The notes below the pieces were generated by a model that worked only from the letters and a program-made list of their open reading frames with translations, searched no databases and was not told the origin of the DNA. Of a DNA stretch of 64,000 nt, positions 3,001 to 16,228 are shown in pieces. This DNA comes from Candidatus Nomurabacteria bacterium. GTDB lineage: Bacteria; Patescibacteriota; Minisyncoccia; Phycocordibacterales; UBA9973. The translations under genes were made by a program, and so were the position numbers. Position 1 is the stretch's first letter; each line of letters begins with the position of its first letter. The DNA lies in assembly GCA_031425235.1 (NCBI GenBank), contig JANPIZ010000001.1, positions 27,731 through 91,730 on the forward strand, in the 5' to 3' direction.

Positions 3001-4857
3001 AGATAAACCAGTAGTATTACCAATGAAATTAAAGTTACCACCGTTCATAGTCAGAGCGGCTGAATCACTAATACGGTTATAAATTGCGATAGAAGAATCA
3101 TCGAGGGTGAGTGTTCCACCAGAATTGATAGAGATAGTAGAAAGAGGAATGGCTCCAGCACCGCTTAGTGTGAGAGTACCCCTATTAATAATAGTAGTTC
3201 CAGTGTAATTACTAAAGGATTGGATTGTTAACGTACCTGTATCATTTTTCGTTAGAGTGGCTGATGTACCATAGATAGGTGCTGATGAAGTAAAAGTAGT
3301 ATTCCCCGCACCACCTATTGTAAGCCCTACAGCTGCTGCAGAAAGACCTTTAGCGTCAATAGTCAAAGTCGTTCCAGTGTCTGACATGATCATAGGCACT
3401 GTACCGAGAGTAAGTAAACCTGTGAGAGTATTGTTACCTGTTCTATTTCTAATAGCTCCAGTATATAGGTGTCCAGTTCCAGAAAAAGTTATATATTCAG
3501 GTATAGAGAGTCCACTACCATTTATCTGAAGTGTAGCACCAGCAGTGACTGTGGTAATACCATCGATAAGACCGAGGGCAGTGCTGTTTTGAATTTCTAA
3601 AATACCCAAGCTCACAGTCGTAGCACCAGTGTATAAATTCGGCCTCGTAAGTACCACAGTCCCCGGCGTGCTTTTTGTTATTGCTCCACCGTCACCAGCA
3701 ATAATTGCACTAATAGTACCCGCATACACTGTCCAAGTAGCACTAGAAAGTATTCCAGAAGTACCGGTAATAGTTCCGCTTGCTAAGTCTAGTGTACCTA
3801 AAGTAACTGGTCCGACCATGTCTGAAAAGGTCGCAATGTCTAGTGTTCCGCCAGTAACTGTGACCGCACCTGAAAGAATGGCATTATCTACTCCATACAC
3901 AATAGTACCAGCGTTAATAGTCAATAAGCCTGTGTTTGTATTTGGAAAATTATAAGTGACAGTACCGGCACCATTTTTAGTAATTGTGCCGCTACCCGCG
4001 AGTGGGGCCGTAGAAAATACCATGTTTCCTGATCCATCAAAAATTAATGGTGCGTTTCCTGTCGTACCACCAGTAATAGTTAGCGTTCCAGAGTCAGAAG
4101 CTATTTCAGTACCACCAGCTGAACTTAAAGTAATAAGTCCACCAAAAGTATTTGTACCACTTATATTTCTTAGTGCACCGCCAGTACCCGAGACACCCCA
4201 ACCACGCAGAGCCAAAGCTTCGTAACTGATATTTATGTTTCCTTGTAGTTCTAAGGCAGCACCGCCGACAACTTCTGTCCCTGCAAGAATTGTTCCGAGC
4301 GCTGTCGCATGCCGGGCATTAACTACACCTACGTTTATTTTTAAAATTCCACCGAAAGTATTACCACCAGATAGCACTAATGTCCCTGTACCTTCTTTAT
4401 TCATACCACCAACTCCACTAATCCTACCGCTGATAGTCAAATTTTCGGCTGTGTTAGTAACAACAATATCTCGAGTAGCATCCACACGAATATCGAGTGC
4501 GATAGTATTGCCACCAGAAGCGACACTATCAGTAATACCCGCTAAGCCTGGCCCGAGAATAATTGCGTTACCAGACAGAGTATAACCACTACCTGTGAGA
4601 GTGATGGAGTTTATGATTGTATTTTCTGTTAAGTCGTTGGTGTTGGAAAGATTTGAGGCACCAGATGGAAAAACTAAATCGTCCCCAGTGACGGGTACAG
4701 TGCCTCCCCAGTTACTGGCTACGGACCATGAGCCACTCGTGGTCCCCGTCCAGGTTCTGGTTGCAGCTTCTGCCTTATTTGAATTTACAAAAAATATTAA
4801 TCCAAAGATAAAAAATATTGTGGAAAATTTTATTATTTTTTTAAAATTAATTTTCAT
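1..4857 (-). CDS. Giant secreted Gly/Thr-rich beta-helical surface protein, N-terminal part (at least 1618 aa). Its C-terminus and stop lie beyond the window start. It carries autotransporter-associated (PATR-like) beta-strand repeats.
   Basis: It is not in the ORF track because no stop codon falls inside the window. All 11 plus-strand ORFs listed in 2..4882 sit in frame 2, the typical antisense shadow of one long minus-strand gene. Hand translation from the ATG at 4857 gives MKINFKKIIKFSTIFFIFGLIFFVNSNKAEAATRTWTGTTSGSWSVASNWGGTVPVTGDDLVFPSG...NKEGTGTLVLSGGNTFGG...TKNGAGTVTYNF, i.e. a signal peptide followed by GTGTLxLSGxNTF repeats. A spot check of the minus frame at 2701-2760 gives TASILKGAFGDNSLSGTGTD with no stop. 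The start lies 8 nt downstream of the preceding gene's stop. Confidence 0.7.
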   Translation of the reverse strand, partial: MKINFKKIIKFSTIFFIFGLIFFVNSNKAEAATRTWTGTTSGSWSVASNWGGTVPVTGDDLVFPSGASNLSNTNDLTENTIINSITLTGSGYTLSGNAIILGPGLAGITDSVASGGNTIALDIRVDATRDIVVTNTAENLTISGRISGVGGMNKEGTGTLVLSGGNTFGGILKINVGVVNARHATALGTILAGTEVVGGAALELQGNINISYEALALRGWGVSGTGGALRNISGTNTFGGLITLSSAGGTEIASDSGTLTITGGTTGNAPLIFDGSGNMVFSTAPLAGSGTITKNGAGTVTYNFPNTNTGLLTINAGTIVYGVDNAILSGAVTVTGGTLDIATFSDMVGPVTLGTLDLASGTITGTSGILSSATWTVYAGTISAIIAGDGGAITKSTPGTVVLTRPNLYTGATTVSLGILEIQNSTALGLIDGITTVTAGATLQINGSGLSIPEYITFSGTGHLYTGAIRNRTGNNTLTGLLTLGTVPMIMSDTGTTLTIDAKGLSAAAVGLTIGGAGNTTFTSSAPIYGTSATLTKNDTGTLTIQSFSNYTGTTIINRGTLTLSGAGAIPLSTISINSGGTLTLDDSSIAIYNRISDSAALTMNGGNFNFIGNTTGLSMETAGALTLSTGHNVVTVTPGAGGSTTMTFASFARTAGASVLFRGTSLGSTPGPNVSTLMFTTAPVSPALAGAAGAAGTTTASILKGAFGDNSLSGTGTDMVTYNLGNTNGLRLLNGAGFSGEYSTTLTTNTNVKLAANVAASTVSVNSLILNGFGITNGAATITISNGGSLAGNILINSATDIAGASTTLGITTSELNIHATANSTISAVIGTAAAGSLTVSGTGNVTLSTASLHTGLTSVNGATLTYGISNALSSGGITVNGGTLNINGSSDTVGAVILQNGTITGSTGVLSGTSYSLREGTVSAIINGASAVTVVATNAPANATVTLSRDNTYTGVTTITSGILKLGAAGGGTNTPLGTTAAGTTIAAGAALDLNGFTLGTAEGITSMTGLGFGPGTTVANGNSNMGALMNTSGTPASYSGAITLAAASRINADYGALTISSAISGATIGLTIGGFSDSTFSGVIGTTSGTLTKDGIGVLTLSNGSSSYTGATTISVGTVKIGVASVGGTNSPLGTTGGITTVALGARLDLNGINLGIAEPLTINGVGYGLGDFASGALMNSSGSAVTFTGLITLGAASTIKADYGDINLTAAGTITGSGFGLTLGGSGVGTLSSIVGTVAGTVTKIGTGTWTFSGQSTYTGATAVNLGTYKLGATGGATNTPFGTNAGGAVVYTGAVLDFNSFTMPTTEALTINGRGINDGGALIGSSGTFGGTIAQGTDSRITNASGTMTITGAVSGAFLLYIGGAGNITTSAVFPAVALGITKQGAGTLTVTGANLYTGATRVDTGTFAYAATTTLVGTNLVVNGGIFNSGANADTIGTVTLVGGTITNSAALTGTAYTLESGTVSGILAGAIAVVKNTNNTVTLTGVNTISSTTTINAGTLTLSGSGSATTTTITVNLGGTLTLDNTSTAVASRLGDALALTMNGGNFNFIGNTAGASSETTGALTLASGRNVVTVTPGAGGSTTMTFASFSRTAGAGVLLRGTSFGSAPAAN

Positions 4858-4864
4858 GTATTTA

Positions 4865-5899
4865 CTATTGTGCGTCACTTGAAAACTTATCAACGCCATC
4901 ATAAATTATTTTTGAGATTTTTTGAATCTGTAACTTTTCAGAGTTAAGATCGCCGCCCTTGGTCATAATACAAACTATGTAGGGAATATTTGGATGGTAC
5001 ACAATACCACAATCATGCAACTCAATTTTTTTCTTTCGTCCCGTTTCAATTAATTCTCTTTCTCCAAATTTATGACTAACTACAATATTACTAGGTACTC
5101 CAGCCACTATGCCATCTTTGAAAACAGCTTGTGATAATATTGTCAAAGCCTCTTCAGAATTTTCCCTACTTAAATATGAAGCATTATATAAAACCAATAA
5201 AAAACGACCAATATCTCGAGTAGTCACAAAATCTTTCTCAGCTATTTCTCCATCAGTGGCTGGCAGTGAAATTTTCATATCAGTAAATATAGATTTCAAA
5301 GAGTCTTGGCGATATTTATATAGTAGCTGAAGTGCGTTATTGTCGGAATTAATAATCATTTCTTTCATCAGCTCTTTGACTGTATACGTCTGCCCGGGAA
5401 CAATAGTCCCATTGCCGAGATTTTTTACTCTATTAAAATTTTTACCTTGATAAGTAATTTTTTGATCAAGCAAATCTTTTTCAGTTTCTTGAAGTTTGTA
5501 ATAAGAAATCAGCATCGGTAACTTTAGTAAACTAGCTGGAATAAAAGTGTCTGCGGCATTTATACTAAACCAGCCCGAGTTATTTAAATTTAGAAAAAAT
5601 ACTCCTACTTTTATATCAGGCCTCTCAGCTACAACATCTTCGACTAAATTTTTTAATTTACGTTCTGCTGGAAACCATTTTAATGTTTCCTCTTCATTAC
5701 CATAACCAGAATTTAATAATGGTTTGATGAATTTATACTGACCGGTATCCAAACGACTATCGCTCGCAAATGGACCAACATTAAAAACACTACTGACTAC
5801 CGGAAAAATCCTAGTATACAATATACCTATTACTACGAGACCCCCCATAAAAAAACCAATAATTAGAAGAGCTATGTGTTTATATACGTTACTTTTCAC
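4865..5899 (-). CDS. Membrane-anchored serine hydrolase of the class A beta-lactamase / penicillin-binding fold
   Basis: 344 aa with an N-terminal TM helix. It has the S-x-x-K motif (ASLLK), the SDN motif (INSDNNALQLL) and a KTG-like HKFGE motif. It ends 8 nt before the start of the giant gene, so the two look like an operon. Confidence 0.6.
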   Translation of the reverse strand: MKSNVYKHIALLIIGFFMGGLVVIGILYTRIFPVVSSVFNVGPFASDSRLDTGQYKFIKPLLNSGYGNEEETLKWFPAERKLKNLVEDVVAERPDIKVGVFFLNLNNSGWFSINAADTFIPASLLKLPMLISYYKLQETEKDLLDQKITYQGKNFNRVKNLGNGTIVPGQTYTVKELMKEMIINSDNNALQLLYKYRQDSLKSIFTDMKISLPATDGEIAEKDFVTTRDIGRFLLVLYNASYLSRENSEEALTILSQAVFKDGIVAGVPSNIVVSHKFGERELIETGRKKKIELHDCGIVYHPNIPYIVCIMTKGGDLNSEKLQIQKISKIIYDGVDKFSSDAQ

Positions 5900-6050: not shown

Positions 6051-6593
6051 ATGGAACAAGTACCTAGTAAAAAAATAAAATTTGATAACATACGTAAAAA
6101 ATGGGATGAAGACAACCAAAAATGGTATTTTTCTATTGTAGATATGGTAGGGTTAGTAACGAAAAGCAATGATGCTAGAAATTATTGGAAAGTTTTTAAA
6201 AATCGTTTAAAGACAAAACAAAATAAGTTGGTTACAAGTTGTAACCAACTTAAACTAGAAGCTTCTGATGGTAAATTTTACTTGACAGACGTTGCAGATA
6301 TTAGCACTATAACTGAACTACTAAAAATCATCTCTCCAGAAAATATATTTGGCTTTAGAGCCTGGGCACTTGGTTTGAATGAAGTAAAATTCGAAAAATC
6401 TCTCCCCCAACCTACTAAAAAAATAATGAATGATATTTCTTTCGAGCCGAAGAAAAAAAGTTATCCACAAGTGACTTACACTTTAGCAAATTTGATAAAG
6501 AAAAATCCTGAATCTTCAAACACAGAACTTTCAGAAAAAGAAGAGTCACGAGAGAAAAAATTTAAGAAAATTACAAAGATGCGAACTATCTAA
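6051..6593 (+). CDS. Bro-N / DinD-like (phage antirepressor N-terminal domain) protein
   Basis: 180 aa. The N-terminus FDNIRKKWDEDNQKWYFSIVDMVGLVTKSNDARNYW fits the Bro-N/KilA-N pattern F..IR......WF...DV..LG. The C-terminus is Lys/Glu-rich. Confidence 0.45.
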   Translation: MEQVPSKKIKFDNIRKKWDEDNQKWYFSIVDMVGLVTKSNDARNYWKVFKNRLKTKQNKLVTSCNQLKLEASDGKFYLTDVADISTITELLKIISPENIFGFRAWALGLNEVKFEKSLPQPTKKIMNDISFEPKKKSYPQVTYTLANLIKKNPESSNTELSEKEESREKKFKKITKMRTI

Positions 6594-6596
6594 AAT

Positions 6597-6630
6597 AAAA
6601 AATTCTCGTTTTAAACGAGAATTTTTTATT
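6597..6630. terminator. Bidirectional rho-independent terminator between convergent genes
   Basis: aaaaattctcgttt-taa-acgagaatttttt forms a perfect stem flanked by an A-run and a T-run. Confidence 0.7.
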
Positions 6631-9600
6631 GCGCTGGAGTTGTATCTGGTTCTGGACCTTCGCTTGGAGCTGTCTCCGGAGGTGCGGTAATTTCTGGTGG
6701 TGTATCTTCTGTTGTTGTGTCGGGTGGTGTTACATTTTCAGTTGGTGTTTCTTCGGGTGTAGAAGTTTCACCTCCACTACCTCCAGAACTTTCGTCAGGA
6801 GTTTGTGTGCTTCCTCCATCTTCATCTCCACTATTGTCGACATTGATAACTTCGAGTCCATCCCCAAGGCTCTCGAAAACTTGCACGTCTTTTACCCCAA
6901 GGGCAATCCATGAGAAGCGAATATTTTGTGGTGCTTTTTTGTTGAGTATGATCGTGAATCCAGTTTCATCTTTTTCTATCACAAGTGATGTTATATTTTG
7001 TGCAAGTAAATCATCGATTGAAGTTTCATCCATGTTGTCGGTAGTTTCAAAAGATATGGACGCAGTCACTACTGGAGTTGTCGCATACGGTTCTTCAAAT
7101 TCGACTCGTACAAATTTATCTCCTTCTTTTACGAGAGCAAACCCTGCGGTATCTTTGTTGAATATTGGCGGAAGATTAAATTCAACCTGAGAATCAAAAC
7201 TAATTTTTGCCGGTAAGTCCGGTGTGCCTTTTAGTATTGTAAGCCCCGCAAATGTCGCATCACCAGATACGTTTAATGTATCAGTGCTAACGACTTGAGC
7301 TGTTAAGCGAGGAGTGACGACTTCAAGTCCGGCCACGATACGATCAGTAAGTAATTCAGAAATACTGAATGCTCCTTCTGTATCTTCTTGGTCACTCAAT
7401 AATTTAGCGAGTATTGAAGCTGAGTCTTCTACTGAACCATTCAATGTAAGTCCGGTATAATTATTTAAACTCTCCCCATTAAAATATCCTTGTTCAACGT
7501 ACACCATCACAGTTGCTTTGTTTGAGCCAGAAGTCCAAGACTCTATCGCTTTACCGATAACAACTCCAGCTTTTGTAGCTTTTGTCGCTTTACCCGGTTC
7601 GCCAGACGTAGTAACGTAATCACCAGGGAAAATAGATGCTGAATTTGAGGCAACTTTTACAGGTACGCGTCCGTTTAGAGCAACTGGCATTGGATTGTCT
7701 ACATCTTTTATATTGTGCCCAGCAGAAGTAAAGTCTCCGTAGTTATCAGAAACAATACCGATTGTATTTGTTTGATATGCTTTTGAAGTTTTTTCTAATT
7801 TAGTTATCTGGCCTTTTACTTTATTCCAATCAATATTGCCATCAGTAACATCATATGTAGTCACCATTTCATTACCTGTCGCCACGATATCTCCAAATTC
7901 CACGCCATTTTCTACGGGGTACATTTCTGCATAGTCAGCAGCTGGAGCAGCGTTACAATCCCGTATTTCATATGCCGTACCAGCCGTAGGGCCAGTAGCA
8001 TTTGCTAGACTAGAACAAACAGCGTTTGTAGAGGCCGTTCCCGAAAGACCCATACTCACCACACCTGCGCTTGTAACTTTAAATTTCTGGACACTCGCAT
8101 TTTTGAAATCAAGGAAATCTCCCGTGAATGAAGTTGAGCCTCCACTTACTGCCATGTCTATCAAAATAGCGTCCCCAGTAAATGCAGATGTATCATGATA
8201 TACGCTTAGCATTGATGCTGCAGAAGTCATCGAACCGGTATAGAACCTCGCTACATCTCCTTGGGTTGTACCTGTATTTTCTGCATATAAACCAGCCGGA
8301 ACAGCAACACCTCCAGCCGTACCCGCTGTGATAGCTTGTACACCATATGTTCCAGCAATAGCACGAAGCCCAGTATTAGTACCTGCCGTATTACTTCCAG
8401 CGTTTGATGTGATATCAATACCACGAACAAGATTTGCGAGAGATGTGTTGTCAACTGTACGTATGGTTTCCCCTACCATTGTGTTCGAATTTGTTGTCGG
8501 CGCGTTATTGAAAACAAAACGATTACCGACTTGAACAAATCCAGCGGTTCCTCCGTTGTTAAAGGTATAATCACCATGGATACCAGCTATGGCAGTAGTA
8601 GATCCATTCGAAGCCATAGTGCTGACTATGTTTAATTTTGCAAGTGTTCCAGATGTGAGTGTAGTACCGCCTATCAATACTTGACCACCATCTACATTCA
8701 AACCAATGTTTGCAGTAGTTGCTCCTGAAGCATTTACATATAACCCAACGTTTGTTCCCGAAGTTGCGTTTGTATGAGTATTAGAAATTCGTGCTCCGTA
8801 TGTAGTAATAGCATTTGTAGCCGTTGCGCCGGTTGTCAAAATATTTAATGCTGTTTGAGAAGCTGCGGCCGCTGTACCTGAAACTTGGAGATCTACTAAT
8901 TTTCCTGTTGTTAGTGTTGAAGATGCAGCATATAATCCTGTTCCTGTAGTTAGCGAATTAGCGTTCAAAGCTAATGCAGATGTTGTGGTTGTCCCCGTAA
9001 TAACACCCGAAGTAATCTGAACTGAGCCTGTAGTGTTCGGAGTTAAGGTTATGTTATTACCAACTAAAGCCAAGTCTGCTGCAGTCGCAGTAATTGTTAG
9101 CCCGGCAGCAGCAGTAAGAGCAGTACCGAGACCAGTTATGTTATTCGAGTTCATTCCAAGAGCTAAGTTAGAGAAATTGTATTCATCAGCTCCTGCAATT
9201 TGAACATTCAAAGTTTTACCAGTAACTGTATTAATGTTCATGTCTCCAGTGTTATCACGGAAGATTGAGTTGACTGTTCCTGCTGGAGCACTCGCATCAT
9301 CTGAGGTGAAAGTTAAGGCATCATTAGTAGTGTCATCAACCTCTCCAGAGAATGAGCCGCCGCCACAGCCAGTACAAGTTCCGCTAATTACTACATCACC
9401 ATCAAACCGAGCTGTGCCTGCATCTACCCAGAGAGCATACGCGTTTGTTAAGGCTATATTTGCACCCCCGTCAGCAGGAGCCCCTGCGATATAAACATTC
9501 GCTGCATTGGTAATGGTAACGGCATTAGTGGAATCAAAAGTAGGAATACCAAATGAGTTGGCGACTCCATTAGTACGGGTGCCTGCCCCGTCGCTATCGG

Positions 9601-11975: not shown

Positions 11976-12965
11976 ATGGAAAAAATAGATTTTTTAGCGA
12001 TTGGGGATATTGTAATAGACGCTTTTATTAAATTGAAGGACGCAGAAGTATCAGGTGAGCCTGATACTGAAAATTATAAAATATGTGTACCTTTTGGAGA
12101 AAAAGTACCCTATGAGGAGGTGGATATTTTATATGCTGTGGGTAATGCCTCAAATGCCGCTATTTCAGCTGCTCGCCTGGGTCTTACCTCAGCACTTGTG
12201 ACAAATCTAGGAGAAGATAAAGATGGAGGGCAGTGCTTGGATACGCTCAAAAAAAATAACGTAGTGACTGATTTTGTAAAAATAAATCCTGGAATGAAAA
12301 CAAATTATCACTATGTACTATGGTACGGAGCGGAGCGTACTATTTTAATAAAACATGAAAAATATCCATATGAATTACCTGACGTAGGTGAACCAAAATG
12401 GATTTATTTTAGCTCTGTGAGCGACACGGCATTCCCCTTCCACAATATAGTTTCAGAATATTTAGAAAAACATCCCAATATAAACTTGGCTTTTCAGCCT
12501 GGTAAAAATGAAATAAAACTAGGCAAAGAAAAATTAGAAGGGCTTTATAAAAATTCAAAAGTTTTTGTATGTAATGTTGAAGAAGCAGAAAAAATACTTG
12601 GTGTCCAAAGTCTAGACATAGAAAAACTTTTACAAGGAATGCGTGAGCTTGGCCCTCAAATAGTACTCATTACAGACGGACCAAAAGGAGCCTATGCCTC
12701 AGATGGCAAAGATACATGGTTTATGAAGCCATATCCCGACCCAAAACCACCAGTATCAAGAACTGGTGCTGGAGATGCATTTGCTTCTACCTTTGTATCT
12801 GCAATAATTCTCGGCAAGGATCTACCTGAAGCAATGGCGTGGGCAGGAATAAATGCTATGGCTGTGGTCCAGCACGTGGGAGCAAATGTAGGACTACTTA
12901 CTAAAGAAAAACTCGAAGAATATTTAAAAACTGCTCCAGAAAATTACAAGCCTAAAAAAATATAG
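11976..12965 (+). CDS. PfkB-family carbohydrate/nucleoside kinase (ribokinase-like)
   Basis: 329 aa with the PfkB signature TGAGDAF and a Gly-rich N-terminal motif (AIGDIVID). Confidence 0.8.
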   Translation: MEKIDFLAIGDIVIDAFIKLKDAEVSGEPDTENYKICVPFGEKVPYEEVDILYAVGNASNAAISAARLGLTSALVTNLGEDKDGGQCLDTLKKNNVVTDFVKINPGMKTNYHYVLWYGAERTILIKHEKYPYELPDVGEPKWIYFSSVSDTAFPFHNIVSEYLEKHPNINLAFQPGKNEIKLGKEKLEGLYKNSKVFVCNVEEAEKILGVQSLDIEKLLQGMRELGPQIVLITDGPKGAYASDGKDTWFMKPYPDPKPPVSRTGAGDAFASTFVSAIILGKDLPEAMAWAGINAMAVVQHVGANVGLLTKEKLEEYLKTAPENYKPKKI

Positions 12966-12978
12966 TTCTTAAACTTCT

Positions 12979-12997
12979 ACATAGGAGTTTCCTATGT
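12979..12997. repeat. REP-like palindrome copy 1 (ACATAGGAGTTTCCTATGT)
   Basis: A 19-bp near-perfect palindrome with an 8-bp stem. It overlaps the stop codon of the RAYT gene. Confidence 0.8.
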
Positions 12998-13627
12998 ATT
13001 GTCAAAATTGAGCCATTCAAACAACTCTTTTTTGTGATCAATTGGATTTTTGAAATAAGTTGGAAACTCTTTTGGGTTTATGATTTTAAATTTTTTGTTA
13101 ATATATTCTTTTAAACTCGAATACCTATAATTAAAAATGTATTCTGATAAATTGTTAGTTTTTCTATTTTTTGTCTCTCTCCAATTTTTATCTATTAGTT
13201 TTGCTGGATTTAAATGTATGTATGAATAAAGATATTTTAAATACGTATCTTTACTTACATGACTTGATTTAAATACCCCTTCATATAATTTCCCTGTTCT
13301 TTCGTACTTTCTATTAAAGTACATAGAATATCCAGTTAGTAACTTGCGCATATATGTAGAAATACCATTTTCTATTTTTTCATGAGCCAATATGTGAAAA
13401 TGATTTGGCATTAAACAAAAAGCTCCTATATCAACAATTGTCTCTCCTCGCTCAAAAAACTCGTCAATATCTCTCAATATAATACTTTTTTTAGTATTAC
13501 AAATATCCATCAAAAACAAGAAGTGCTGGTAATCTTGTTCATCTAGAAATATTATTCTTTTCTCTGTGCCACGATTATATAAATGATAATATTCTCCTGG
13601 AACAAAAACTTGTTTTCTTAGAGCCAT
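12992..13627 (-). CDS. REP-associated tyrosine transposase (RAYT) / IS200-IS605-like Y1 HUH transposase
   Basis: 211 aa. It has the HUH motif (MPNHFHIL) and a catalytic Tyr region (YLKYLYSYIHLNP). The N-terminus GEYYHLYNRGTEKRIIFLDEQDYQHFLFLM fits the Transposase_17 pattern. Confidence 0.75.
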   Translation of the reverse strand: MALRKQVFVPGEYYHLYNRGTEKRIIFLDEQDYQHFLFLMDICNTKKSIILRDIDEFFERGETIVDIGAFCLMPNHFHILAHEKIENGISTYMRKLLTGYSMYFNRKYERTGKLYEGVFKSSHVSKDTYLKYLYSYIHLNPAKLIDKNWRETKNRKTNNLSEYIFNYRYSSLKEYINKKFKIINPKEFPTYFKNPIDHKKELFEWLNFDNT

Positions 13628-13641
13628 CTTTTAAGCATAAC

Positions 13642-13670
13642 ATTTCACATAGGAGTTTCCTATGTGAAAT
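13642..13670. repeat. REP-like palindrome copy 2 (extended: atttcACATAGGAGTTTCCTATGTgaaat)
   Basis: It has the same 19-bp core as copy 1, extended to a 13-bp stem. It lies about 25 nt upstream (minus orientation) of the RAYT start. Confidence 0.8.
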
Positions 13671-13675
13671 AAAAA

Positions 13676-14254
13676 TTAACCGAGTAATTCAAATTCTGTG
13701 TAGCCAAGTTTGCGCATCTCTATATAAACATTTTGAATTAATTTTATATGTCCAGTCATAAGTTTGAGCTCATTTTCTTCTTCTTCATTTAAATTATTCT
13801 TTGTTTCTAGTTCAAAAAACCTCGTACTATAATTTCGAAGATTCCATTCTTCCAATGAACCAAAATCATAGCCCAATTTTTCTATTACTTCATCAAAAGT
13901 ATTATGTAATTTTTTTGCCTTATCTGATTGCTTTTTCCTTTCTGGGTCATTTTGTATATCAACTACTGCACGAGGATCTAACAATTTTTCATCCCACTCT
14001 CGTCGTTTAAATCCTCCGGGAAAATGTCCAAGAAAACTATTTTGAAAACTTAGGAAATAAGCTGTGTCACTTGCCTTTGATAAGAATTCGATTTGACGCT
14101 TATACATATTTTCATAAAAAATGTCTCCTTTTTTTATTTCTAGTTCTTTTTTGGCATAGTTAAGGCTTGTTTCTCTTGAAGAGCGTAAATCATTTGTAAG
14201 TGAATCCGGACTGTAAACCTCACTTGCTTCGTTTATGGATCCTTCTATTGGCAT
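13676..14254 (-). CDS. Hypothetical protein (192 aa, cytoplasmic, charged) carried between REP copies 2 and 3
   Basis: Intact ORF in the track. I recognise no motif in it. REP palindromes flank it on both sides. Confidence 0.5.
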   Translation of the reverse strand: MPIEGSINEASEVYSPDSLTNDLRSSRETSLNYAKKELEIKKGDIFYENMYKRQIEFLSKASDTAYFLSFQNSFLGHFPGGFKRREWDEKLLDPRAVVDIQNDPERKKQSDKAKKLHNTFDEVIEKLGYDFGSLEEWNLRNYSTRFFELETKNNLNEEEENELKLMTGHIKLIQNVYIEMRKLGYTEFELLG

Positions 14255-14271
14255 ATAATTTAGTTTTAATT

Positions 14272-14304
14272 ATGGTTTACATAGGAAACTCCTATGTAAA
14301 CCAT
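14272..14304. repeat. REP-like palindrome copy 3, inverted core (atggtttACATAGGAAACTCCTATGTaaaccat)
   Basis: A 33-bp near-perfect palindrome whose core spacer GGAAACTCC is the reverse complement of GGAGTTTCC in copies 1 and 2. It contains the TAG stop and the last two codons of the transketolase C-terminal subunit gene. Confidence 0.8.
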
Positions 14305-15344
14305 GTTTTTCTTGCTGAAACTTTCTTCACTGCGCCTTTGATGCTTTCTTTTCCCATACCATAATGTTCTATGAGTTCATCAGGGGTACCACTTTGACCA
14401 AATATATCTTTGACTCCTATAAATTCTATTGAAGCTGGGAAGTTTTGCGCGAGAACTTCAGCGACTGCGCTCCCCATCCCCCCTGCTATTTGATGTTCTT
14501 CGACAGTAACTATTTTTTTAGTTTCTTTTGCGAGGGCGATGATCGCCTCGCTGTCGATTGGCTTAATACTCGCAAGATTTAATACCTTTGTTTTTATACC
14601 TTCCATTTCGAGTTCCTTCGCGGCAATAATCGCTCGATATAAAAGCCCACCTGTAGCAATAATACCAACTTCGGCAATTCCTACGTCTGGCATCCAATAT
14701 ATTTCTGCCTTACCCAAACTAAAAGGAGTTTCTTCTGTGGTTATAATTGGGGTTTTTTCTCGTGCCAAGCGTAGGTATGCTGGCTTCCCTGTTTTTGCTA
14801 AAGCAAGTGTCGCCTTTTTTGCCTCGATAGCATCACATGGGGATATAACATCCATGTTGGGAATTATGCGCATCAAAGCTATGTCTTCGAGTGCCTGGTG
14901 AGTGCCACCATCAGGACCGACAGAAATGCCCGCATGTGAACCCACTATCTTTACCGGCCTGTCGTTGTAGGCAATAGTCGTACGTATCTGCTCCCAGTTT
15001 CTACCAGGCGAAAACATCGCATAGGAAGAACAAAAAGGAATTTTCCCCATCGCCGCCATACCTGAAGCAACTGTCGCTAAGTTTTGTTCCGCGACTCCGA
15101 TTTCAATAAAACGCTCAGGAAATCTATCTTTGAAAAAATTCATCTGGGTAGACTCAGTAAGGTCAGCACACAAAGCAACAACATTTTTATCAGCTTCTCC
15201 AGCCAGCAGTAAGCCCTGCCCAAATCCCTTTCGTATTGGTGCTTGCTCAACATCGTCGTTGAAAAGTTTAGGATTTAATTTTAATTTTGGGTTTAACATT
15301 GATTTTATTAACTCACGCCGTATAGTCATTTTGACGCGGCGCAA
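14292..15344 (-). CDS. Transketolase, C-terminal subunit (pyrimidine-binding and C-terminal domains)
   Basis: 350 aa with the motifs FIEIGVAEQN, GPDGGTHQALEDIA and KPID. Confidence 0.85.
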   Translation of the reverse strand: MRRVKMTIRRELIKSMLNPKLKLNPKLFNDDVEQAPIRKGFGQGLLLAGEADKNVVALCADLTESTQMNFFKDRFPERFIEIGVAEQNLATVASGMAAMGKIPFCSSYAMFSPGRNWEQIRTTIAYNDRPVKIVGSHAGISVGPDGGTHQALEDIALMRIIPNMDVISPCDAIEAKKATLALAKTGKPAYLRLAREKTPIITTEETPFSLGKAEIYWMPDVGIAEVGIIATGGLLYRAIIAAKELEMEGIKTKVLNLASIKPIDSEAIIALAKETKKIVTVEEHQIAGGMGSAVAEVLAQNFPASIEFIGVKDIFGQSGTPDELIEHYGMGKESIKGAVKKVSARKTWFT

Positions 15345-15346
15345 AC

Positions 15347-16228
15347 TTACTCGTGTTCACTCTTAATCTTACCTCCGAGGGTTCGGAGTTCATGAAGTGC
15401 TCTTTTCCCTTGTTCTTTGTCAGGAATACCTACTCCTGGAGCGCCTCCATGCCATTTATAATTCCTCTCAAACTCATGCACTCCTTTGCCAGGTATCGTA
15501 TGCGCAATAATGACTATCGGCTTCCCATAAATCGCCTGCGCTTCTTGCACAGCTTCGTTTAAACCTGTAAAATCATGCCCCCCCACTTCTATTACATGCC
15601 AATTAAATGCACGCCACTTGTCTGCCAGCGAATTAAGAGGCATTATATCCTCCGTAAACCCATCTATCTGAATATTATTTCTATCAACAATTGCAATCAA
15701 ATTTCGTAATTTATTTTTACTCGCGAGCATAATTGCTTCCCAGTTATTTCCTTCATCGAGTTCGCCATCGCCAAGGAAACAATAAATAAATCTATCTTTA
15801 TCTTTCTGGTCAATTCTATCTGCAAGTGCCATGCCGACTGCTTGTGAAAGTCCGGAACCAAGAGGCCCTGAACTATTTTCAAGCCACGGCATGTATTCAC
15901 GATGTGGATGACCTTGGAGACGTGAGCCGAATTTTCTTAGAGTTTTTAATTCTTCCAGCGGAAAATAACCCGCATGAGCCATCGCGGCATACAACACTGG
16001 ACAAATGTGACCATTTGAAAGCACCAGTCTATCGCGTTCTTCCCACATTGGATTTTTAGGATCATGTTTTAGTACGTGAAAATAAAAAAGTGTGAAAATG
16101 TCAGCCATACCGAGTGGCCCCGCAGTATGTCCACTCCCCGCTGCAAGCAACATTTCAATAATACTCTTCCGAATATCATTTGCTTTCAGTTCCAACTCTT
16201 CTATTTTTTTATCAGATAAAAATGCCAT
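15347..16228 (-). CDS. Transketolase, N-terminal subunit (TPP-binding)
   Basis: 293 aa with the motifs GSGHTAGPLGMADI, GHPH and GDGELDEGNNWEA. It lies 2 nt upstream of the C-terminal subunit gene. Confidence 0.85.
   Translation of the reverse strand: MAFLSDKKIEELELKANDIRKSIIEMLLAAGSGHTAGPLGMADIFTLFYFHVLKHDPKNPMWEERDRLVLSNGHICPVLYAAMAHAGYFPLEELKTLRKFGSRLQGHPHREYMPWLENSSGPLGSGLSQAVGMALADRIDQKDKDRFIYCFLGDGELDEGNNWEAIMLASKNKLRNLIAIVDRNNIQIDGFTEDIMPLNSLADKWRAFNWHVIEVGGHDFTGLNEAVQEAQAIYGKPIVIIAHTIPGKGVHEFERNYKWHGGAPGVGIPDKEQGKRALHELRTLGGKIKSEHE

Follow-up and report, generated by a model that had tools for sequence, protein, structure and literature searches.

We examined a 64,000-nucleotide stretch of DNA (the window) from a Candidatus Nomurabacteria bacterium, in which a gene for a 211-amino-acid Y1/HUH single-tyrosine nuclease (12992..13627, minus strand) lies between two copies of a short perfect hairpin, with a third copy beyond a neighboring gene for a 192-amino-acid protein. 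This locus is probably the "home" of a system of the kind formed by repetitive extragenic palindromes (REPs) and REP-associated tyrosine transposases (RAYTs), wherein a Y1 gene at a fixed position is accompanied by its cognate hairpins in a Nomurabacteria-like member of the candidate phyla radiation (CPR, or Patescibacteria). A first-pass annotation had interpreted the locus as a REP/RAYT cassette. Its reading largely stands, chiefly on evidence from beyond the window, in that a repeat family is tied to the Y1 gene, although the GT[AG]G foot of canonical REPs, dispersal within the window and a high copy number are all missing.

The repeated unit is the 19-mer ACATAGGAGTTTCCTATGT, which is found by pattern search three times in the window, twice in direct and once in inverted orientation. 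Only 0.04 copies are expected by chance, and the count was reached in none of 100 shuffled sequences. The unit comprises an 8-bp stem (ACATAGGA/TCCTATGT) and a 3-nt loop, GTT. Copy 1 (12978..12998, core 12979-12997, plus strand) reads T-ACATAGGAGTTTCCTATGT-A and has a 9-bp stem with the GTT loop; it is located between the convergent genes for a pfkB-type sugar kinase and the Y1 enzyme, downstream of the latter. Copy 2 (13643..13669, core 13647-13665, plus strand) is the Y1-proximal upstream copy, between the 192-amino-acid gene and the Y1 gene, and its stem is lengthened to 13 bp by TTTC/GAAA. Copy 3 (14272..14304, core 14279-14297, minus strand), whose stem is lengthened to 15 bp by ATGGTTT/AAACCAT, is inverted relative to copies 1 and 2, such that its loop reads AAC on the plus strand. 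When folded as single-stranded DNA (ssDNA), the three copies form 9, 13 (13643-13669) and 15 (14272-14304) pairs, for which the folding energies are −6.6, −11.5 and −14.0 kcal/mol and the z-scores range from −3.2 to −8.1. The earlier description of three palindromes, two direct and one inverted, that bracket the two genes is confirmed in its coordinates, as is the extension of two stems, although these reach 13 and 15 bp rather than 13 bp each. Scans with Rfam and for tRNAs produced no match at the locus.

The hairpins also contribute to coding sequences. Copy 1 contains the final codon and the stop of the Y1 gene (minus-strand ACA TAG), and in most close orthologues the Y1 stop codon is likewise found within the downstream hairpin. 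Copy 3 overlaps the 3′ end of the gene for the C-terminal part of transketolase (tktC; 14292-15344, minus strand), whose stop is the TAG inside the hairpin (ACA-TAG-G) and whose last four codons (T W F T) plus stop are hairpin sequence. Hairpin-free tktC orthologues in related loci terminate with ...ARKNSII* (L028) or, at the DNA level, with ...GGAAAATGTAA, read as ...RKM* (L064).

The sequence of the 211-amino-acid protein supports its assignment to the RAYT-type (Y-x3-NP) Y1/HUH enzymes. The protein passes the Pfam model PF01797 (Y1_Tnp) with 30.3 bits against a cut-off of 23, in agreement with its first-pass description as an HUH/Tyr enzyme. The HUH motif (H76-F77-H78, within PNHFHIL), the catalytic-tyrosine motif (Y136-I-H-L-N140-P141) and a tail motif (Y167-x-Y169-S170-S171) were identified, and across 26 orthologues no variation was seen in H76-F-H78, Y136-IHL-N140-P141 or Y167/Y169-S170-S171. 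Y-x3-NP is the hallmark of class 2 (RAYT-like) enzymes and Y-x3-Q that of IS200 (Quentin et al. 2018, PMC6006769); judged by sequence, the motifs NHFH, YIHLNP and YSS fit the former and not the latter. Consistent with this, no IS200 model was matched in an NCBIfam search. Escherichia coli RayT is 22% identical over the catalytic core by BLASTP, and a profile of 98 family members aligns with it in register from the HUH motif through Y-NP, albeit weakly (14 bits), whereas hhalign with a shallow Y1 profile aligned the HUH strand alone. Searches of PDB sequences with the single protein and with a 26-sequence profile gave no meaningful match and no solved relative.

Among 8,000 scored candidate homologues, 7,960 have E values of 0.001 or lower. 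The best 120 of these 8,000 are 71 to 83% identical to the query, apart from one identical sequence, and those with a source name carry the labels Patescibacteria, Nomurabacteria, Paceibacterota, Minisyncoccia or "bacterium" and no others. The first-pass view that such a gene would be unexpected in a CPR genome is thus not supported. Some family members are already annotated publicly as "transposase" or "RayT". What was known, then, is the protein family; the hairpin rule, the conserved locus and the behavior of the system in reduced genomes are new.

The association between gene and hairpin extends across the wider Y1 family. A scan of metagenome contigs yielded 80 further Y1 loci (39-80% identity), and an unbiased search revealed a perfect hairpin common to both flanks in 43 of them. 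Nearly all of these flank-shared hairpins conform to stem-AGG-N5-CCT-stem and occur as direct or inverted pairs, about half being direct. When 76 Y1 loci with both flanks readable (39-84% identity) were considered, perfect hairpins with the AGG-N5-CCT apex were present on both sides in 46 and on one side in 18. The density of these hairpins is 3.5 per kb in Y1 flanks versus 0.048 per kb elsewhere, a 73-fold difference; this count is pattern-based and agrees with the unbiased hairpin search.

These stems show compensatory changes. The lower stem occurs in 44 sequence variants. In a set of 147 distinct hairpins, the unselected pairs 7, 8 and 9 from the apex are Watson–Crick in 88%, 70% and 58%, each of the four pair types being represented, as compared with 29 to 39% pairing at pairs 10 to 12. 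The two outermost bases of the loop pair with each other in 71%, and the effective loop is therefore 3 nt long. A different hairpin, TGTGCTAGG-TCTTG-CCTAGCACA, flanks a Y1 gene whose product is 47% identical (L051). The structure and apex are therefore kept while the stem sequence shifts with the enzyme lineage, which is the pattern expected of a hairpin that is recognized by a protein and co-evolves with it.

Copies of the hairpin are also dispersed away from the gene in related genomes. We searched the GTDB species-representative genomes (596 Gb) and found the exact 19-mer in 50 stretches, 47 of which are from Patescibacteria, often with several contigs per assembly. The other three (L025, L043 and L047) are from Firmicutes and were taken as chance matches, because about four are expected in 596 Gb by our own estimate with equal base frequencies and because Y1 is absent nearby. 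A Y1 gene 75 to 84% identical to that of the window is present in 12 of the 50 loci, and in all 12 the hairpin occurs on both sides as a singlet or an abutting inverted doublet. In the remaining 38 loci (35 from Patescibacteria), the hairpin is present but no close Y1 orthologue is nearby, and the hairpin-bearing loci of any one assembly never include more than one Y1 gene. The window likewise contains one.

The conserved unit in these genomes is T-19mer-A, with otherwise unrelated flanks. In 92 oriented copies, conservation beyond the 19-mer is limited to T at −1 (78%) and A at +20 (77%). Allowing at most one mismatch, 88 copies were placed relative to genes, with 39 intergenic, 18 at a gene 3′ end, seven at a 5′ end and 24 inside open reading frames (ORFs). 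Since ORFs of at least 90 amino acids cover 88% of the sequence and 64 of the 88 copies are intergenic or at gene ends, the extragenic bias is strong. Doublets upstream of Y1 (L004, L013, L023, L029 and L048) are consistently oriented, the Y1-proximal half being antisense and the distal half sense to the gene, and copies 2 and 3 of the window have the same orientations as these halves. Indeed, the layout of the window (proximal antisense, distal sense, downstream antisense) equals that of L004 except for the spacing of the upstream doublet. Abutting or short-spacer doublets, in few copies only, are also present in loci such as L008, L035, L041, L012, L037 and L045.

The position of the Y1 gene is conserved as well. 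The order tktN-tktC-(hairpin)-Y1-(hairpin)-pfkB is common to the window, L018, L028 and L064. In the window, NCBIfam matches identify the gene for the N-terminal part of transketolase (tktN; 15347-16228, minus strand), tktC and the convergent pfkB-type kinase gene (11976-12965, plus strand), the last being the sole plus-strand gene near Y1. In L009, Y1 lies just upstream of tktN, and in L103 a Y1 gene with 44% identity lies beside tktC. Identities to the window for Y1, tktC and tktN are, respectively, 81%, 88% and 84% in L009, 79%, 85% and 82% in L028, and 76%, 75% and 77% in L018; in L064 they are 80% for Y1 and 80% for tktC, and the locus covers no more than 57 amino acids of tktN. Y1 identity (76-81%) therefore tracks tktC identity (75-88%), which fits vertical descent at a fixed site and not a hopping insertion sequence. 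From these comparisons, the Y1 gene looks vertically inherited.

These observations bear on the possibility that copy 1, Y1 and copy 2, a segment of approximately 690 bp, together make up an autonomous insertion sequence of the IS200 kind, with the direct hairpins as its ends and movement by single-strand peel-and-paste. Such an element would resemble the segment in several respects. IS200 is about 700 bp long, its Y1 gene lies between two hairpins, and copies 1 and 2 are direct on one strand, like the ends of IS200/IS605 elements; about half of the flanking pairs in the wider family are direct as well. However, flanking copies are inverted in many orthologues, and IS200 TnpA is a protein of about 150 amino acids with Y-x3-Q, encoded by near-identical multicopy elements that spread horizontally, whereas the enzyme here has 211 amino acids and Y-x3-NP. 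Moreover, its chromosomal neighbors are kept across species in which Y1 is 76 to 80% identical, no more than one Y1 was seen in any genome's set of hairpin loci, and solo hairpins are the majority and outnumber the genes.

One related site could be construed as an empty insertion site. At L001:1112-1130, the syntenic pfkB-hairpin-tktC frame contains a single hairpin and no Y1, in an assembly with at least seven hairpin copies on three contigs (four loci). Precise excision of the IS200 type leaves no hairpin behind, unlike this site, which retains one. The Y1 gene has been either lost there or situated elsewhere in that genome, and the arrangement is consistent with loss by recombination between flanking copies, if the change ran in that direction. 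Taking both sides together, we regard an IS200-like element as very unlikely, and the preferred reading remains a Y1 gene resident at a fixed site with its cognate hairpins.

Hairpin content also differs between close relatives, as is seen at two sites in a pair of assemblies with 93% identity in their orthologous DNA. A second type of unit, ATACGGAGG-CGTTG-CCTCCGTAT, stands beside the 19-mer at L026:6714-6736 and is missing at L050:~3127-3135, and upstream of Y1 there is a doublet at L029:1494-1531 versus a singlet at L017:2554-2572. The set of hairpins thus changes over short timescales. As the indel boundaries are not perfectly clean, each difference could reflect a gain or a loss. The arrangement in L026 further indicates that two hairpin types coexist and cluster, rather like the Y and Z REP types in the bacterial interspersed mosaic elements (BIMEs) of E. 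coli.

A promoter-like sequence adjoins the upstream hairpin. The extended −10-like box TGTTATGCT (13634..13642, minus strand) separates copy 2 from the Y1 gene, whose ATG follows after 6 nt. Across about 20 orthologue loci, in most cases TG(T/C)TATACT/TATAAT directly follows the upstream hairpin at 6 to 8 nt before the Y1 ATG, and a TGnTATACT box is present in L004, L005, L017, L024, L029, L048 and L064-L070. A generic promoter scan did not call the TGTTATGCT site in the window. The conserved box suggests a predicted extended −10 promoter that would produce a nearly leaderless Y1 mRNA. The hairpin occupies the place of a −35 box and spacer and therefore might serve as an operator.

It might be argued from this arrangement that the hairpins are static host regulatory elements under selection, such as terminators, RNA-stability stem-loops or operators, and that their link to Y1 is one of autoregulation only. 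The position of the upstream copy against the Y1 −10 box in most orthologues would fit such a role, as would the many copies at gene 3′ ends, where they give stop codons, and the 19-mer does not vary among species with only 52 to 61% identity between their pfkB genes. A simple scan also called copy 2 (minus strand) and copy 3 (plus strand) terminator-like. Against this, copy 1 and the transcribed-strand reading of copy 3 are followed by no U-tract, and copies are found in frame within genes for tRNA synthetases, MnmA and an aminotransferase, in which premature termination would do harm. The presence of copies differs between the two genomes that share 93% DNA identity, doublets that abut in inverted orientation are characteristic of REP elements and not of terminators, and the hairpin sequence shifts along with the Y1 lineage. 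We therefore mostly rejected terminators given the missing U-tracts, in-frame copies, turnover and doublets, and purely static regulatory elements are improbable as an account of the family. A dispersed repeat family with its own Y1 enzyme remains the favored interpretation.

The in-frame copies in housekeeping genes of relatives deserve a separate description. They are found in genes for leucyl- and arginyl-tRNA synthetase, MnmA, a class-V aminotransferase and an ERAP1-like peptidase (L010:2731-2749, L020:371-389, L045:4758-4805, L041:4074-4111, L008:3840-3877, L035:266-303, L022:1217-1235 and L033:4613-4631). A singlet in frame encodes (N/Y/D)IG(N/V)SYV and a doublet encodes IGVSYVHRKLLC. 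The insert in the class-V aminotransferase gene is at the same site in two genomes.

The 192-amino-acid gene (13676-14254, minus strand), upstream of Y1, belongs to a rare all-helical family. A word-indexed search of 5.8 billion proteins matched the protein to itself alone, whereas an exhaustive search of 1.84 billion representatives found two weak relatives with E values of about 1e-4, and a profile built from these three sequences recovers 22 proteins. Their alignment displays the motifs NNFxGHxPGGxxR, DxxIxxLG and YxxMRxxGY, and the AlphaFold model of the protein has a pLDDT of 88.9 and a pTM of 0.82. Searches of Pfam, NCBIfam and structures gave no structural or family match. The ORF is a real gene. 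With the Y1 gene it forms a segment (12800-14200) with 25 to 31% G+C, as compared with 41 to 46% for the transketolase genes and 33 to 41% for pfkB.

In the first-pass annotation, this gene was viewed as the passenger of a REP doublet. In such an arrangement, it would be cargo between inverted ends (copies 2 and 3) of a composite mobilized by Y1 and resembling a REPIN, a pair of inverted REPs, or else it might encode a functional partner of Y1. It is true that the gene is bracketed exactly by inverted copies, 613 nt apart, in the orientations of the upstream doublets that normally abut. The inverted repeat also extends to 36 nt at 81%, although this weak extension is AT-rich and of weak significance. 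In addition, two of the 11 genomic contexts of the family, including the window, adjoin a Y1 gene. In the other, P0126 (143 amino acids) is located directly upstream of, and on the same strand as, the hairpin-flanked Y1 with 47% identity (L051:6001-6432 and 6526-7185; also L052). By our estimate, adjacency of this kind among the 10 other family contexts has a chance probability of about 0.025 if a Y1 gene occurs once per approximately 800 genes, and it is left unexplained. We also noted a reverse-transcriptase (RVT_1) gene about 3 kb from the P0126/Y1 pair in L051.

Several findings argue against cargo. A second REP-gene-REP unit with the 192-amino-acid gene was not present in anything searched, and no family member occurs at approximately 97 Y1 loci other than L051/L052, nor at the other hairpin loci. 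No hairpin flanks were found around eight other family members, the ninth, P0122, has no neighboring Y1, and the L051 gene has no hairpin on its far side. Furthermore, the slot between tktC and the upstream hairpin of Y1 is variable, being empty in L018, occupied by a type-IV-pilin-like ORF (FTLIELLVV...) in L064 (~1190-1470) and by a small hydrophobic ORF in L028 (3754-3984), with no distal hairpin in any of the three. By the usual criterion, a REPIN consists of two inverted REPs less than 130 bp apart that recur in many copies; copies 2 and 3 are much farther apart and bound a unique unit. Thus, the gene is probably not cargo mobilized by the hairpins, and we give little credence to the composite or partner model as a whole. 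Most likely, the 192-amino-acid gene is a lineage-specific resident of the variable tktC-Y1 slot and an independent hairpin copy landed at the tktC stop codon, which is the simplest reading. As a less simple course, the gene may have been inserted between the halves of a doublet.

Given that the locus is probably the home of a REP/RAYT-type system, a mechanism can be modeled on those of E. coli RayT and IS608 TnpA. The Y1 enzyme would bind the hairpin formed on ssDNA, for example on the lagging-strand template. Tyr136, together with a metal site involving H76 and H78, would cut beside the hairpin, and the strand would then be rejoined. Hairpin units could thereby be copied, lost or moved, which would explain the singlets, the abutting inverted doublets and the solo copies at gene ends, between genes and inside them. 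The upstream hairpin that abuts the Y1 −10 box may double as an operator, and the downstream hairpin provides a stop codon and a 3′ stem-loop.

The closest parallel is E. coli RayT (TnpA_REP, YafM; subclass 2.2, Bertels Group 2). It is likewise a Y1/HUH enzyme with Y-x3-NP, its gene keeps a fixed chromosomal position between copies of the cognate palindrome (a "REPtron"), and its REP/BIME sequences occur elsewhere as singlets and inverted pairs that are mainly extragenic. The differences are also clear. E. coli RayT has 165 rather than 211 amino acids and a different conserved tail; E. coli REPs have a GTAG foot and a bulge, whereas the hairpins here have a perfect 8- to 9-bp stem and a 3-nt loop; and E. 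coli carries hundreds of REP copies, as compared with a few per genome here in an ultra-small host.

By its motifs alone, the enzyme is nearest to subclass 2.1 (Bertels Group 1, which includes many "TIRYT" proteins), whose signature is NH[YF]H, Y[IV]HLNP and SS (PMC6006769). Proteins of this subclass have a median length of 238 amino acids and an HTH-like distal domain, and they are reported to occur at low copy number without REP-like flanks (PMC6006769). The SS tail and low copy number are shared by the CPR family, in contrast to the lack of hairpins, since the CPR genes are consistently flanked by them. Subclasses 2.6 (Bacteroidetes) and 3 have flanking hairpins without GT[AG]G and further copies elsewhere in the genome, as is true here. 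However, their motif details (NH[LIV]H and YIH[QN]NP in 2.6, Y-x3-EQ in class 3) and phyla are different, and their "atypical secondary structures" are described as weak, whereas the CPR stems are perfect with an invariant AGG/CCT apex. The survey that defined these classes used complete genomes, names no CPR phylum among its taxa and finds that class 2 Y1 genes favor larger genomes (PMC6006769). In the papers that could be searched, nothing relevant linked RAYT, REP or IS200 to Patescibacteria, CPR or Parcubacteria.

Several of these results weigh against a REP/RAYT-type system as we have described it. The affinity to subclass 2.1/Group 1 places the enzyme nearest to a group reported as not associated with REPs, and its sole NCBIfam match, NF047646 (REP_Tyr_transpos), scores 36.3 bits, under the cut-off of 80; the profile check of the protein therefore succeeded with PF01797 and fell short with the RAYT model. 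A 5′ GT[AG]G tetranucleotide at the hairpin foot guides cleavage in canonical REPs, and a GTAG/GTGG foot is absent in the 92 oriented copies. Related genomes hold about 2 to 10 copies, far fewer than classical REP/REPIN families, and REPINs, which are present in approximately 10% of eubacteria, number in the hundreds (bioRxiv 10.1101/2021.07.10.451892). In L024, a related contig of 598 kb, exact copies occur solely beside its Y1 gene. Because genomes were searched with the exact 19-mer as the starting point, perfect copies are favored. Lastly, no further ACATAGGAGTTTCCTATGT copy is present in the window at up to three mismatches. As far as the window reaches, the palindrome is therefore confined to this locus, and it is in related genomes only that it forms a dispersed family.

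Some related loci contain additional repeats or enzymes. Three loci from two assemblies (L002:5308-5328 and 5488-5508, L005:3300-3320 and L037:40-60) have a different, G+C-rich hairpin, CTTGGTG…CACCAAG, within a few bases of the 19-mer; the window lacks it. One relative carries the 19-mer hairpin inside a longer repeat, about 90 nt in length (…GTGCAACATCCGATGTTGCACAAATGTTGCACAAAAAT + hairpin), with at least three copies (L012:7300-7720, L044:1185-1315 and L046:1-585); we considered this region as an analogue of a "REP-bounded insertion" and set it aside as too tangled for interpretation. A second Y1-like coding stretch, just 31% identical, is present at L002:1714-2124 in a genome that also bears the 19-mer, which suggests that a single genome can harbor two or more Y1 lineages.

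Work on REP/RAYT systems has been confined almost entirely to Proteobacteria with large genomes. CPR bacteria are expected to have genomes below 1 Mb, from which selfish repeats should be purged. Nonetheless, a related pair of enzyme and hairpin is widespread among them, conserved and in syntenic position, and its persistence in such small genomes argues for a benefit to the host or a survival mode of very low cost. It is conceivable, although on the doubtful side, that the Y1 enzyme and its AGG-N5-CCT hairpins form a domesticated, vertically inherited system that serves the host and has its own recognition rule, namely a hairpin read at its apex with no guide tetranucleotide, and that the 192-amino-acid family is an occasional partner or a substrate-linked gene. 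Host roles in such a system could include the supply of stop codons and 3′ stem-loops, operators at promoters and in-frame inserts in essential genes.

The hairpins offer a compact substrate, with a stem of 8 to 9 bp, an AGG/CCT apex and a 3-nt loop, for studying how a Y1 enzyme selects where to cut when no guide tetranucleotide is present. The copies located in frame in core genes invite comparison with the Rickettsia palindromic elements (RPEs), reportedly described by Ogata et al. in 2000, which also are palindromic repeats located in frame in housekeeping genes of a reduced genome. RPEs are about 100 to 150 bp long and, to our knowledge, have no associated Y1 enzyme, unlike the 19- to 48-nt, Y1-tied units of the CPR relatives. 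These bacteria would thus provide a second example, besides Rickettsia, of palindromic repeats that shape proteins in reduced genomes.

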